The notes below the pieces were generated by a model, which worked only from the letters and a program-made list of their open reading frames with translations, had not been told where the DNA came from and did not search any database. Both the position numbers and the translations under genes were made by a program. From a plasmid, in sequence record OW967251.1: a DNA stretch of 64,000 bases; one strand, 5' to 3'. This document shows, in pieces, positions 36,365 through 42,175 of this stretch. How positions within the stretch are numbered: position 1 is the stretch's first letter; each line of letters begins with the position of its first letter.

Positions 36365-37068
36365 TCAGACCCGGCTGTTACCGGCCACGCCTGTCTGGGT
36401 AGGGAACGAGTGGTGGAACAGTCGGTTCCGTCGGGCGTTAACCTGCGGAACAGAAACCCATGCGACTTTCAGGTCGCACTGCCGAAATAATACTGGTTTC
36501 CCTTCTTGGTCTGGTGCATTTCCGGGTCGCGCTTGCCGTCCTTGTTCTTGGTCGAACTGGGCGCATTGATCAGCGTTGCATCGACGATGGTGCCCTGGCG
36601 CAGCGACAGGCCGCGGTCGCCCAGAGCCATTGATGACAGCGAGGATGCCGGCCGCCAGCTCGTGTTTCTCCAGCAAGCGGCGGAAGTTGAGAATGGTGGT
36701 TTCGTCGGGGATGCGCTCCAGGTTCAGCCCGGCAAACTGGCGCAGGATCGTGGTTTCGTACAGCGCTTCCTCCATCGCTGGATCGCTGTAGCCGAACCAG
36801 TTCTGCAGCAGATGCACACGCAGCATCGCCATCAACGGGTAGGCCGGACGGCCACCTTCACCCTTCGGATAATGTGGCTCGATCAAAGCAATCAAGCCCT
36901 TCCACGGCACCACCCGATCCATCTCGATCAGGAACAACTCCTTGCGGGTTTGCTTGCGCTTGCCAGCGTACTCGGCGTCGGCGAAGGTCATCTGCTTCAT
37001 CGGGAAACTCGGTGGGTGGGGGCGCGGTATTTTGCCAAATCAGAAAGTCTTTTTCAGAGTTTCCCTAG
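36365..37068 (-). pseudogene. 5' ~700 bp of an IS5-family element (IS5 group) with frameshifted, 3'-truncated transposase
   Basis: MKQMTFADAEYAGKRKQTRKELFLIEMDRVVPWKG... follows IS5-like transposase sequence, then shifts frame after AVIN. Similarity ends after ...KKGNQYYFG. The left end (CTAGGGAAACTCTG...) is identical to the fragment at 41788. Confidence 0.6.
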
Positions 37069-37107
37069 GCTGACAAGCCAAGCGCTGGATCGCAACCATC
37101 CATCACC

Positions 37108-37977
37108 TTATCCAGCTAGATCTGCCTCCTCCAATAAGTGCCGCACAAATCCCGGCGGGTGCAGATTTCCGGGAGGTTTGCGCCAGATCAGTTGGAGACG
37201 CTTTTCAAGCCCCGGGATGGGAAGAGCTACCAGCGCGCCACTGCGAACTTCGTCTTGTACTGCGGAAGCCATCACCAACGACACGCCGAGTCCCGCCCTC
37301 ACTGCTTGTTTGACTGCCTCGGTGCTGCCTAGCTGCATACCGCTGCGAGGCACGCCCAGTTCGCCAAAGTATTCGGTCAGAAGCCGTCCGGTACCGCTAC
37401 CCGGTTCACCTCCCAGCATCGGCAGGTCCACCAGACGATCACGTTCTATGCACCCTGCTTCAGCCAGCGCATGGTCGGGGCTGACGATAAGCACCAGCGG
37501 CTCGACCCGCCAGAGGCGGTGTTCGAAGTCGGGGTGAGGTAGCCACCATTCCATGATCGCGGCGTCGAGCTGGCCCGCCAGTAGCTGGTCGGCCACATCC
37601 GGGTTGGCGGCGATGCGCAGATCCACCTCGCCCCTCTCATTTGCGGTCGTCAGATAGTTGCGCACGAATGGCTGGAGAAGGTAGGTGCCGATGTTGGTGC
37701 TGGCCCCGACGCGCTCACGATTGCCATGCAGGGCTTCTAGCGCCCGGGCGTGCATGTCGAGCAAGGCGGTCGCATGCGGCATGAAGGCCAGCGCCCGTGT
37801 GGTAGGCTGGCAGCCGCTACGACTGCGCTGCACCAGCGTTACGCCGACCTGCTCTTCAAGCTTCTGCAAGTGCTGCGACACCGTCGGCTGGGCCAGCCCC
37901 AACGCCCTCGCCGCGCTCTGAAAACTGCCTGTTTGAACGATCGCTACCAGGCTCTTCAGCCAGACCGGATTCAACAT
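37108..37977 (-). CDS. ptxE: LysR-family transcriptional regulator (PtxE-like)
   Basis: N-terminal HTH ([41 protein letters not shown]) and LysR substrate-binding domain. Last gene of the ptx operon, overlapping ptxD by 7 nt. Confidence 0.7.
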
Positions 37978-38981
37978 GCGGCAGGCTCGGCCTTGGGCAG
38001 ACGGTTCGCAGCGTTGATTGGGCGCGCACCTGCCAATACCTGGATGATGTTCTGCGCTGCACAACGTTCAATCTCCAGGCGCACCGCGCGCACTGCCGAC
38101 CCTATGTGCGGAGTGAACAGCGTATTCGGATGCGCGAGCAGCGCAGGATCGATCAGCCGCGGCCGGTCCGCGCGAGCCCAGTCTTCCATTTCGAATACAT
38201 CCGCCGCATACCCGCCGAGCTGGCCTCGCTCAAGCGCCGCGAGCACGGCGGCTTCATCCACTACCGAACCACGACAGGGGTTTACAAGCAGAGCGCCCGG
38301 CCGTACGAGGGCAAGCAGCTCGGCGTTGACCAGATGCTGGGTATCGGCATTCAAGGGAAGCGCCAGCAGGATGAAGTCCGAGCTGGCGAAGAGTTCGCTG
38401 CACGCCACCTGGCGCAGGCCGAGCCGTTGCTCGGTTTGTGTATCCAGAGCCTTCGCCTCGTGGTACTGCAGGGTCGCGCCCCATCCCTGCAAGCGCTCAG
38501 CCATGGCCAGTCCGATGGCGCCCATGCCAAGGATGCCGACCGTAGCGTTATCCAGCCCCGTGCCGTAGAACTGTGGTTGCCAGCCCTGGAACTCGCCAGA
38601 GCGGACGAACGCATCTGCTGCCCGCAGATGCCGCCCCAGCCCCACCGCCAGTCCGATCGCCAGCTCGGCAGTCGGGACCGTCAACAGATCAGGCACGAAG
38701 GTCAGCCAGACCCCGCGGGCAGTACAGGCGTCCACATCGAAATTGTCGAAGCCCTTGAGCGCGCAGCCGACTACACGCAGCTCAGGGCAGGCTTGAAGAA
38801 AGTCTGCATCGACCCGATCGGGCATGAACGCCATCATCGCCTGAGCATCGCGACAGCGGCGCAGAATTTCCTCGCGCGTCAGCGTGCTGTCGGTCTGGTT
38901 GGTCACCAGCTCGCAATGTGGCGCCAGCAGTTGCAGGATCTCATCGTGTACTCGGTGAGTTATAACGAGTTTCGGCAGCAT
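37971..38981 (-). CDS. ptxD: NAD-dependent phosphite dehydrogenase PtxD (D-2-hydroxyacid dehydrogenase family)
   Basis: 336 aa, [25 protein letters not shown]... GxGxxG Rossmann motif (GILGMGAIG) and catalytic R/E/H. Recalled from memory as near-identical to Pseudomonas stutzeri PtxD; not verifiable here. The ORF track merges it with an upstream antisense ORF. Confidence 0.85.
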
Positions 38982-38989
38982 GTTTTGTC

Positions 38990-39829: not shown

Positions 39830-40689
39830 ATCGTGGCGAAGTCGAGGCCGAGCAGCGATCCCATTTTGCGGATCACATCGTAGTCGGCGTCGGTGATTGG
39901 CGCGAAGGCCTCGGCCTTGAAGTTGCGCAGCACTTCGGGATCGTCGATACCGACGAATACATCCCGCACCTTGGTTTTCAGCTCGGGGCTCAGGTTCGAG
40001 CGCATCGCCCAGGGGTACTGGGGGTATTCGCCGCTGTAACCAAGTACTTTCACCTTGCTCGGATCGATTAGGCCACGTTCGACTACGTGATTGAAAATTA
40101 CCTCCGACAGCCCACCCGCATCGGCGTTGCCGTTCGCCACGTTGACGGCAACGGCGTCATGCGTGCCCACAAAATATTCTTCGTAGTCCCGCCCACCCGT
40201 CAAACCGGCCGTCTCAAGAAGCACGGTTTTGGGAATCAAATGGCTGGACGTCGATGCCCGGTCACCATAGGCCATCTTCTTGCCCTTAAGGTCGGCATAC
40301 TCATTCACGCCTGACGCCACATTGGCGATAATCACCGAGCGATAGGTCGGCTTGCCGTCGATGACCGTGACAGCGAAGGGCTCGATGTCGCTTTTGCTTT
40401 TGGCCATGACGTAGGACAGCGGACCGAAATACGCCAGGTCGATACGGCCAAAGCGCATCGCCTCAATCATCGAGGAATAGTCGGTGGTTACGATCAGCTG
40501 CACCTTCTTGTCCAGATGCTCTTCCAGATAATCCTTCAGCGGCTGGTTACGCTTGATCAGCTCGGAGGCGTTTTCGTCCGGCAGCAGGGCAACCTTTAGC
40601 ACATCCGGATCGGCATCGGCCGCTAGGGCGGACAAACTTGAAACAGCGGACAGCAAGCAAGTCAATAAGAGCGCGGATAAGCGTTTCAT
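39826..40689 (-). CDS. ptxB: phosphite/phosphonate ABC transporter periplasmic binding protein (PtxB/PhnD-like)
   Basis: Signal peptide [23 protein letters not shown]. PhnD-family fold motifs. Confidence 0.8.
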
Positions 40690-41513
40690 CGGGACATCTC
40701 CAGTGAAGGTTCGAGCATGACAGGTGGTTCAGCCGGAGTATTCGCTGGCTGAGTCGTAGAGCGGCCTGCATAGATGCGCTCAAGCTGCGCATCGGTGAGT
40801 TCCGAGGGCGCGGCATCGAAAACGATCTGAGAATCGGCCAGCCCGACGACGCGATCGGCGAAGCGGCGGGCATATTCGAGTTGATGCAGCGAAACGATGG
40901 CGGTGATGCCGTCTTCCTTGCAGATGTCGCGCAGCAATCCGAGAACACGGACCGAAGTGGCCGGGTCGAGACTGGCTACCGGCTCATCGGCCAGAATGAT
41001 CGCCGGCTGTTGCGCTAGCGCACGCGCGATGCCTACCCGCTGCTGCTGGCCACCGGACAGTTTGTCCACCCGGCTTAGCGCCTTGTCTGCCAGACCGACC
41101 CGAGCGAGGCAACTGAGCGCAATCTCCTGATCGGCACGCGGCAGAGGAAACAGCGAGCGGAGCGTGTTGTGAAAGGCCAGCCGACCGGTAAGCACATTAG
41201 CCAGTGCGCTTTGACGTTCGATTAGCTGGTGGTGCTGAAAGATCATGGCGGTACGCCGACGATGCTGACGCAAGGCCGAGCCGCTGCCGAGCTCACCGAG
41301 TTCGCTGGTGACACTGCCGCCAGTGGGCGTGACGAGTCGATTGAGACTACGGAGCAAGGTCGACTTGCCTGCGCCCGAGAGACCAAGCAGCACGGTGAAC
41401 TCACCACGCCGAAATGCAATCGAGGTATCGCGTAGGGCTGTCACGCCGCCTGGATAGACGACGCTCAACCGGTCGACCCGCAGCACGGCGTCCTGTATTG
41501 GATGGGGCATCAT
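40686..41513 (-). CDS. ptxA: phosphite/phosphonate ABC transporter ATP-binding protein (PtxA/PhnC-like)
   Basis: Walker [10 protein letters not shown], signature LSGGQQQR, Walker B ILADEP. Confidence 0.8.
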
Positions 41514-41787
41514 TTGATCACCTTTTGCAATATTGCTGGCCGCACAATTGCGGTTCGCGATGCAAAGGATAGAAATTCCTTGTTAACGCACTGTTTCTAA
41601 AGGATGACATTTCGATGAATACTTCGAATCTGCCGTAGCGGGGCGGCAAGCGAAGCCGTGGAAGAACGGGCGCAACGTAGCGTCTTTCTTCACGCGGGAT
41701 ACAGGAGGCTTTGATTGATACTGCTGCGGATTCGCTACAGTAACGTTGGGCCAGAACGTAATGCCATCCAAGCAAGAGAGCGCACAC

Positions 41788-42175
41788 TAGGGAAACTCTG
41801 AAAAAGACTTTCTGATTTGGCAAAATACCGCGCCCCCACCCACCGAGTTTCCCGATGAAGCAGATGACCTTCGCCGACGCCGAGTACGCTGGCAAGCGCA
41901 AGCAAACCCGCAAGGAGTTGTTCCTGATCGAGATGGATCGGGTGGTGCCGTGGAAGGGCTTGATTGCTTTGATCGAGCCACATTATCCGAAGGGTGAAGG
42001 TGGCCGTCCGGCCTACCCGTTGATGGCGATGCTGCGTGTGCATCTGCTGCAGAACTGGTTCGGCTACAGCGATCCAGCGATGGAGGAAGCGCTGTACGAA
42101 ACCACGATCCTGCGCCAGTTTGCCGGGCTGAACCTGGAGCGCATCCCCGACGAAACCACCATTTGTTGGCGCTGA
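41788..42175 (+). pseudogene. 5' ~380 bp of the same IS5-family element as at 36365..37068, in inverted orientation, 3'-truncated
   Basis: Identical left-end sequence and the first 105 codons of the transposase (MKQMTFADAEYAGKRKQ...DETTI), then unrelated sequence. Confidence 0.6.

Follow-up and report, generated by a model that had tools for sequence, protein, structure and literature searches.

The 64,000-nucleotide (nt) stretch of plasmid DNA from sequence record OW967251.1 (the whole stretch is here denoted the window) carries on its minus strand, at 37108-41513, an operon that we identify as the known Pseudomonas stutzeri-type phosphite assimilation operon, ptxABCDE. This identification is secure at the sequence level. 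The operon is flanked by two inverted fragments of one insertion sequence (IS) of the IS5 family. The explanation that best accounts for the locus, and that we consider very probable, combines this known operon with arrival on the plasmid in a patch of pseudomonad DNA and with IS fragments that have decayed. The feature itself is already known, being a well annotated and very common part of pKPN3-like Klebsiella plasmids.

The list of open reading frames (ORFs) shows five intact and tightly packed ORFs between 37108 and 41513, contiguous on one strand in the order A-B-C-D-E, with the gene of the LysR regulator last. The first gene, ptxA (40686-41513), encodes a PhnC-type ATP-binding cassette (ABC) ATPase of 275 amino acids (TIGR02315, 327 bits against a cut-off of 266). 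It is followed by ptxB (39826-40689), encoding a periplasmic phosphite-binding protein of 287 amino acids (TIGR01098 above the cut-off; match to 5O2J), and ptxC (38990-39829), encoding a PhnE-type ABC permease of 279 amino acids when read from a GTG codon (TIGR01097, 293 bits against a cut-off of 217); the NCBI annotation pipeline PGAP takes an ATG 12 nt downstream of this GTG, giving 275 amino acids. PtxA, PtxB and PtxC hence score above the cut-offs of the NCBIfam PhnC, PhnD-superfamily and PhnE models. Next come ptxD (37971-38981), recognised by P. stutzeri structures and catalytic residues as the gene of an NAD-dependent phosphite dehydrogenase of 336 amino acids, and ptxE (37108-37977), encoding a LysR-family regulator of 289 amino acids with the Pfam domains HTH_1 and LysR_substrate. 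The A/B and B/C junctions overlap by 4 nt each, C and D are separated by 8 nt and D/E overlap by 7 nt.

The identity of the enzyme and of the binding protein carries the assignment. PtxD matched the crystal structures of the P. stutzeri phosphite (phosphonate) dehydrogenase with an E value of 8e-216 for the structures and 16 mismatches over 335 aligned residues (~95% identity), and the catalytic residues R237, E266 and H292 are kept, as are M53, K76, W134 and R301. Its Pfam domains, 2-Hacid_dh and 2-Hacid_dh_C, are those of the D-2-hydroxyacid dehydrogenase fold. PtxB is ~96% identical to P. stutzeri PtxB (PDB 5O2J; E 5.5e-168, ~10 mismatches over 264 residues) and retains D16, Y49, Y94 and the capping tyrosine Y203 in the numbering of 5O2J; the roles of these ligand residues, including the capping tyrosine, are discussed in PMC5700983. 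The reading of the block as ptxABCDE, made in an initial annotation of the letters, was thus borne out. One might argue instead that the dehydrogenase is a D-2-hydroxyacid enzyme acting on a substrate other than phosphite and that the transporter serves phosphonates or phosphate, given that NCBIfam has no PtxD-specific model, that its top matches to PtxD are glyoxylate reductase models (every one below its cut-off) and that the transporter genes score as PhnCDE. With ~95% identity to a biochemically and structurally characterised PtxD, all the named catalytic residues in place, and a binding protein ~96% identical to the phosphite-specific Ps_PtxB with its capping tyrosine, we regard this as extremely unlikely.

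By analogy with the characterised proteins, PtxB would capture periplasmic phosphite, PtxA and PtxC would import it, and PtxD would convert phosphite and NAD+ into phosphate and NADH. Ps_PtxB binds phosphite with a dissociation constant of 0.24 uM, compared with 160 uM for phosphate (PMC5700983).

The operon lies between the arms of a perfect inverted repeat. A repeat search returned a pair at 36692-37068 and 41787-42163, each 377 nt long, 100% complementary and with 4718 nt in between, a pair that cannot be due to chance. Both arms code for the N-terminus of one IS5-family transposase, the left one on the minus strand and the right one on the plus strand, and the promoter-proximal ends of both copies (the left inverted repeats, IRL) point inward, toward the operon. 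These data agree with the earlier description of the flanks as inverted, truncated copies of one IS5-family element, one of them frameshifted, and the complete identity of the arms establishes that the two fragments are related at the nucleotide level. The inward orientation of the IRL ends was also described correctly, but their positions, given as 37068 and 41788, were not: the termini lie at 37064 and 41791, and the 4 nt by which each arm extends past its terminus are a target site, the palindrome CTAG, next to the left IS end at 37065-37068 and next to the right one at 41787-41790. The inner IS ends read GGAAACTCTGAAAAAG adjoining this CTAG.

The left ISPpu21-like fragment (36480-37064, minus strand, 585 nt, IRL end at 37064) covers transposase amino acids 1-174, with amino acids 1-125 and 127-174 on either side of a 2-nt deletion between 36625 and 36626. 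The right fragment (41791-42163, plus strand, 373 nt, IRL end at 41791) covers amino acids 1-103 and is 100% identical to the matching part of the left copy. Both copies are truncated on their outer sides, as first proposed; the outer bounds assigned to the structure at that time, 36365 and 42175, are in fact stop codons of chimeric ORFs that run from the IS into foreign DNA.

A search for an intact form of the IS identified a copy of 326 amino acids in Pseudomonas sp. MPB23 (locus L010), to which the transposase fragments of the window are 100% identical at the amino acid level. The intact protein scores 364.8 bits on the NCBIfam model NF033581 (cut-off 140), placing it in the IS5 family, while the window fragments score 116 and 95.5 bits, below the cut-off because only amino acids 1-174 and 1-103 survive. 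The outer IS end in L010 reads GGATGGTCTGAAGTAG and adjoins CTAA or CTAG, both of the YTAR form; the window has no such outer ends. The nearest labelled relative is a copy named "ISPpu21 family" by PGAP on the P. aeruginosa plasmid pBJ86, 88.8% identical in nucleotides; transposase amino acids 1-174 are 96-98% identical to the PGAP-labelled "ISPpu21 family" copy. In the window, two copies of one IS bracket a cargo, as in a composite transposon, but a functional transposase and the two outer ends are missing, both transposase genes being truncated and one also frameshifted. The IS fragments are dead: both arms have lost the outer end and part of the transposase, and the structure is therefore unable to transpose. 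The ptx module is now mobile only with the plasmid or by IS26-type events.

The initial annotation had also contrasted a ~65% GC block with a ~50% background. The contrast is real but was overstated: the ptx core has 61.0% GC, with 400-nt windows peaking at ~65%, the adjacent ISKpn26 and IS26 flanks have 51-53% and the whole window has 55.2%. Further blocks of 64-69% GC occur at 30000-32000, probably within the clpK heat-resistance region, and at 47000-48000, probably within the integron/chrA/mph(A) region, and the ptx block is thus not the only GC-rich part of the window.

The origin of the truncations is visible in the DNA beyond the IS fragments. On the left, the IS is cut after the codons for ...NQYYFG by the 5' fragment of a group II intron (36260-36479, minus strand, 220 nt, starting with GTGCGAC). 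The full length of the Rfam model RF02012 (group-II-D1D4-7) aligned to the minus strand of this fragment at 36277-36425, and the score, 122.7 bits, exceeded the gathering score of 34 (E 2e-26). Only the 220 nt are left; the rest of the intron is missing and there is no reverse transcriptase ORF. Beyond the intron, 36047-36259 (plus strand, 213 nt) is of pseudomonad origin: it comes from the interior of a DUF499 "anti-phage-associated" gene, and the 71 amino acids that it encodes are 100% identical to part of an intact gene on the P. fluorescens plasmid pG69. This stretch had been considered as more of the intron, a possibility rejected once the DUF499 match was found. The pG69 gene belongs to a DUF499/DUF3780/DUF1156/PLD defence cluster.

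On the right, the IS is interrupted at nt 373 by a 153-nt remnant (42164-42316) that starts with TGT and carries repeated GAAAWTTGACCCA motifs. The same sequence, 99.4% identical, is present in Stutzerimonas stutzeri UBA2609 (locus L012, 10291-10934), where it continues into an IstB gene (PF01695, E 3e-52), indicating that 42164-42316 is the end of an IS21-family element. Several other Stutzerimonas and Pseudomonas loci break off at nt 373 of the IS too, with other sequences beyond.

Both junctions exist outside the Enterobacterales. The IS-intron junction is present in the P. aeruginosa megaplasmid p727-IMP and in loci L031 and L012; p727-IMP is 99.5% identical to the window across 36260-41701 and does not have the 2-nt deletion. 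The IS-IS21 junction is present in L012. As both junctions are found in Pseudomonas or Stutzerimonas DNA, the decay of both IS copies predates the arrival of the locus in Enterobacterales, and since DUF499, intron and IS21 DNA came along, what was transferred was a Pseudomonas DNA patch of 6.3 kb or more and not an IS-ptx-IS unit moved by transposition.

This result bears on the proposal of the initial annotation that an IS5-family composite transposon carrying ptx jumped directly into the plasmid and that its IS copies then decayed in place. The identical 377-nt inverted arms with inward IRL ends at CTAG are what such an event would leave, and a related composite unit of 9.09 kb has demonstrably moved among Pseudomonas genomes (see below). 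However, the intron and IS21 insertions that truncate the IS copies have counterparts at 97-99% identity in Pseudomonas/Stutzerimonas DNA and so predate arrival on the plasmid, the IS fragments are flanked by extra Pseudomonas DNA (DUF499, intron and IS21 sequence), and the plasmid has neither an outer IS end nor a target-site duplication. Direct transposition into the plasmid is therefore very unlikely and already largely refuted. What stands of the composite-transposon proposal is that such a unit exists in Pseudomonas, where it is 9.09 kb long and occurs in three contexts; delivery into the plasmid by transposition does not stand.

The proposed Pseudomonas-type origin of the module was supported by a scan of one genome per species. 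PtxD at 98% amino acid identity or higher was found in ~40 species, nearly all of them pseudomonads; the carriers belong to Pseudomonas, Stutzerimonas, Halopseudomonas, Ectopseudomonas and Metapseudomonas, and include Telmatospirillum and Klebsiella grimontii. Across the 4.66-kb ptx core, the pseudomonad copies are 98.0-99.7% identical to the window in nucleotides, with zero indels. These similarities indicate that the ptx module has spread horizontally among pseudomonads, very recently and often. The ratio pN/pS against the 98% group is 0.28, showing that the pseudomonad pool is under purifying selection. The pseudomonad modules (loci L004-L043) lie beside varied transposases, integrases and helicase/ATPase genes.

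Within this pool, L009/L015, L010 and L013 share a 9.09-kb segment at 99.9% identity but differ in its flanks, giving three contexts. The carriers are P. abietaniphila and P. gorinensis (at the same site), Pseudomonas sp. ANT_H4 and Pseudomonas sp. MPB23. The segment ends exactly at the outer repeats of its two IS copies, adjoining CTAA or CTAG; one copy is intact, and the other is a 90% variant that carries a full-length group II intron. We take this as good evidence that the IS-ptx-IS unit moves as a composite transposon among pseudomonads. Duplications of CTAA or CTAG were not counted as proof of unit transposition, since this IS always inserts at such sites and matching flanks are expected anyway. 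One apparent case of intragenomic transposition, L010 and L017 of a single genome, was rejected because the two are identical over a full 17 kb, as in a larger duplication.

The 9.09-kb unit differs from the window in that its ptxA-side IS lies 115 bp farther out and is a different variant. Its full-length intron, with a reverse transcriptase/maturase ORF (L010, 2642-4495), sits in the 90% IS variant. A relationship between this intron and that of the window was considered and rejected: there is no significant similarity and the insertion points are ~10 nt apart. Two different introns thus appear to home to nearly one spot in this IS family. The two CTAG junctions of the window recur on contigs of P. 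veronii, a Pseudomonas metagenome-assembled genome, Telmatospirillum, K. grimontii, S. stutzeri UBA2609 and Pseudomonas sp. NPDC047963; the contigs with both window-type junctions are short or already decayed.

Comparison with a second Klebsiella plasmid revealed a further step. The K. quasipneumoniae plasmid pWP3-W18-CRE-02_2 (NZ_AP021952.1, locus L087; 8001-14450 against window 36047-42316) shares with the window a 99.6% identical ptx core, the outer flanks (DUF499, intron and IS21 end), the 2-nt deletion and the CTAG junctions. Unlike in the window, the core in L087 is inverted relative to the flanks, the DUF499 fragment measures 337 nt compared with 213 nt, the IS21 end ~211 nt compared with 153 nt, and the IS arms are 97.6% identical compared with 100%. 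The simplest reading of this difference is an inversion by homologous recombination between the IS arms, which were homogenised to 100% in the lineage of the window. Pseudomonads hold both isomers: p727-IMP is oriented as the window, and L012 and L031 as L087.

The present boundaries of the patch are formed by two other insertion sequences. To the left, 34851-36046 (plus strand) is an ISKpn26 element, IS5-like, with a 326-amino acid transposase annotated as ISKpn26 in pBIC-1a and terminal repeats read from the sequence. Its flanks, TTAG on the left and CTGT on the right, show no target-site duplication, and ISKpn26 probably mediated a deletion or recombination. The copy of ISKpn26 in L087 lies ~350 nt farther from the patch and is followed by CTAG. 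To the right, the patch ends at an IS26 (42317-43136, minus strand), the first of an inverted pair around a Tn3-family tnpA fragment (region 42317-45097). The arms of this pair, 42317-43052 and 44362-45097, are 736 nt long and 100% identical, the inner 84 nt of the two copies do not match, and the enclosed fragment is the C-terminal 421 amino acids of a Tn3-family transposase (43064-44329).

Taken together, these comparisons suggest the following order of events. The module circulates among pseudomonads, often between ISPpu21-like copies inserted at CTAG sites with their IRL ends inward, and one circulating form is the 9.09-kb composite unit found in three genomic contexts. Before one lineage passed into Enterobacterales, one of its IS copies had already been split by a group II intron and the other by an IS21-family element. 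A Pseudomonas patch of ~6.3-6.5 kb, in the order DUF499 fragment, intron fragment, IS fragment, ptx, IS fragment and IS21 end, would then have entered a pKPN3-like IncFIB/IncFII Klebsiella plasmid, where ISKpn26 and IS26 would have trimmed it afterwards. At least one recombination event between the two inverted arms would have flipped the ptx core.

The plasmid carrying the patch belongs to a widespread group. Of the 773 plasmid records that the 5.8-kb region matched, 613 reach 99% identity or higher, 589 are from Klebsiella and most are conjugative; the same IS-ptx-IS region is therefore present on many other plasmids. These records annotate ptxD, phnC, phnD, phnE and a LysR regulator, one submitter having used ptxA-D. 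The plasmids pKP64477a (MF150084.1) and pBIC-1a (NZ_CP022574.1), both inspected and typed as IncFIB/IncFII, are 100% identical to the window across the 5.8 kb, IS fragments included, and have the same neighbours: clpK/hsp20, IS1 and ISKpn26 on one side, IS26 and resistance genes on the other. In pKPN3 of MGH 78578 (NC_009649.1) the comparison covers the left-flank stretch at 36047-36480, just left of the operon, which is 100% identical. The remainder of the window shows 100% identity to plasmids of the pKPN3-like type, in keeping with the earlier view of the host as a multiresistance plasmid; arsenic and clpK/hsp20 heat-resistance loci lie to one side, and aph(3')-Ia, mph(A), sul1, a class 1 integron and chrA lie to the other, in a region rich in IS26. 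In E. coli the ptx module was found in 7 of 5426 complete genomes, plasmid-borne every time. The patch lies a few kb from clpK/hsp20 (window ~28000-33000), and E. coli AW1.7, a heat-resistant isolate from food, also carries it on a plasmid (H178/H179). No study of the ptx genes on Klebsiella plasmids was found in the searchable literature, which yielded only tables of annotations (PMC6286996) and biotechnology papers on other matters.

Upstream of ptxA, a candidate Pho box (TATTCAT-cgaa-ATGTCAT-cctt-TAGAAAC) lies on the minus strand at 41593-41621, 80-108 nt from the ATG and within the 273 bp that are kept between ptxA and the right IS copy. It matches the consensus at 10 of 14 positions, the match spanning 91-108 nt upstream of ptxA, and ~0.08 such sites are expected in the stretch. 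Its TGTCA core holds the same position and is invariant in more distant ptx loci (PtxD identity only 66-85%), some of which have a near-consensus CTGTCAC-N4-GGGTCAC. A scan of the operon for sigma-70 promoter and terminator consensus sequences returned nothing exceeding shuffled expectation, a result that is uninformative for a PhoB-dependent promoter. The ptx operon of P. stutzeri WM88 was reportedly described as a member of the Pho regulon by White and Metcalf in 2004. Expression from a PhoB-dependent promoter is the most likely arrangement predicted for the plasmid copy: PhoB acting at the retained upstream box would drive ptxA-E, and the operon would be silent in phosphate-replete medium and switched on by phosphate starvation. 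In the transcriptome table of PMC6286996, which covers E. coli TOP10 carrying the identical plasmid pBIC1a and grown without imipenem, all ptx genes have 2-5 reads per kilobase per million mapped reads (RPKM), and these tabulated values are compatible with Pho control and with silence alike.

Compared with 25 other copies, the lineage on Klebsiella plasmids carries 11 private substitutions (at 40367-40370, 40179-40190, 40739, 39322, 38906, 37698, 41526 and 38983), of which 8 are nonsynonymous, 1 is synonymous and 2 are intergenic, the latter located 2 nt ahead of the ptxD start and 13 nt ahead of that of ptxA. Four of the nonsynonymous changes are in PtxB, namely A107V, M108T, Q167R and Q171E. 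Of these, A107V and M108T fall on A85 and M86, where the hinge loop reported in PMC5700983 begins. The counts are too few to tell drift from adaptation.

Several points weigh against the account given here. The Pho box is a predicted site with a partial match, only 10 of 14. The 8:1 private substitutions are compatible with relaxed constraint. No report that the plasmid copy is expressed or allows Klebsiella to grow on phosphite was found in the searchable literature, and the near-100% identity among hundreds of plasmids reflects recent spread and is thus uninformative on selection in this host. As to the history, no intact window-type IS-ptx-IS was found, that is, one with both copies of the same variant and the right copy 115 bp nearer ptxA; for this reason, transposition of the window-type configuration as a unit can only be deduced.

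An alternative is that the genes, although intact, are a silent and unselected passenger, hitch-hiking on a successful plasmid and drifting to decay. The RPKM of 2-5 tabulated for all ptx genes of pBIC1a would fit such a passenger, but a Pho-regulon operon is expected to be low in standard laboratory culture. The private changes, 8 nonsynonymous to 1 synonymous with four in PtxB and two of these at the start of the hinge loop, could be read in the same way; this ratio, however, is not significantly off neutral expectation (binomial estimate, P ~0.3). K. pneumoniae ATCC 9621 takes up phosphite phosphorus without ptx genes, so that Klebsiella already assimilates phosphite by a PtxD-independent route (PMC5364233), and the module is rare in E. 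coli, as noted above. Against this, none of the five ORFs is disrupted or differs by an indel from the ~40 pseudomonad copies, catalytic and ligand residues are kept, and the promoter region with its Pho-box-like site is retained. We consider a mere passenger possible but rather unlikely. At the other extreme, the ptx module could be functional and Pho-regulated in epidemic K. pneumoniae, with the phosphite benefit co-selecting pKPN3-like multiresistance plasmids and with the PtxB changes being adaptive; taken as a whole, this stronger proposal is doubtful, and we consider it quite improbable.

The practical significance of the locus is small, as operon, enzyme and transporter are well characterised and over 600 public plasmid sequences carry annotations of exactly this 5.8-kb segment. 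The new detail lies in its history only, in which debris of mobile elements serves as a record of the transfer route, from IS capture in pseudomonads through intron and IS21 interruption, patch transfer and arm inversion to trimming by ISKpn26 and IS26; no new mechanism is involved. A possible ecological interest is that a pseudomonad phosphite-assimilation trait has become fixed on a very successful Klebsiella resistance-plasmid backbone, adjoining heat-, arsenic- and antibiotic-resistance genes. If expressed, the trait might make phosphite a non-antibiotic selective agent for these plasmids; were co-selection to occur, agricultural fungicides and fertilisers and wastewater might be among the sources of phosphite.

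Compared with ptxABCDE of P. stutzeri WM88, the window operon has the same gene order and overlapping gene junctions, PtxD and PtxB at the identities given above with the same catalytic and ligand residues, and a Pho-box-like element upstream of ptxA. Unlike the WM88 operon, it lies on an enterobacterial IncF plasmid and not on a pseudomonad chromosome, no htx operon was seen adjoining it, and its lineage has 8 private amino acid changes. In nucleotides the window is closer to the variant of ~40 other pseudomonad species (99.5-99.7%) than to WM88. The flanking IS copies resemble ISPpu21-like elements of the IS5 family (NF033581) in their terminal repeats, GGAAACTCTGAAAAAG, which abut CTAG or CTAA, and differ from them in being fragments that lack the catalytic C-terminal half and the outer repeat. 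Tn5 and Tn10 are classical composite transposons with inverted IS arms; like them, the window has a cargo operon between two inverted copies of one IS, and the related 9.09-kb Pseudomonas form ends exactly at its outer IS ends in three contexts. Unlike them, the unit of the window reached its plasmid inside a larger patch of DNA. Relative to the pKPN3-like IncFIB/IncFII plasmids of Klebsiella there is no substantive difference, and the window represents one more copy of their ptx region.

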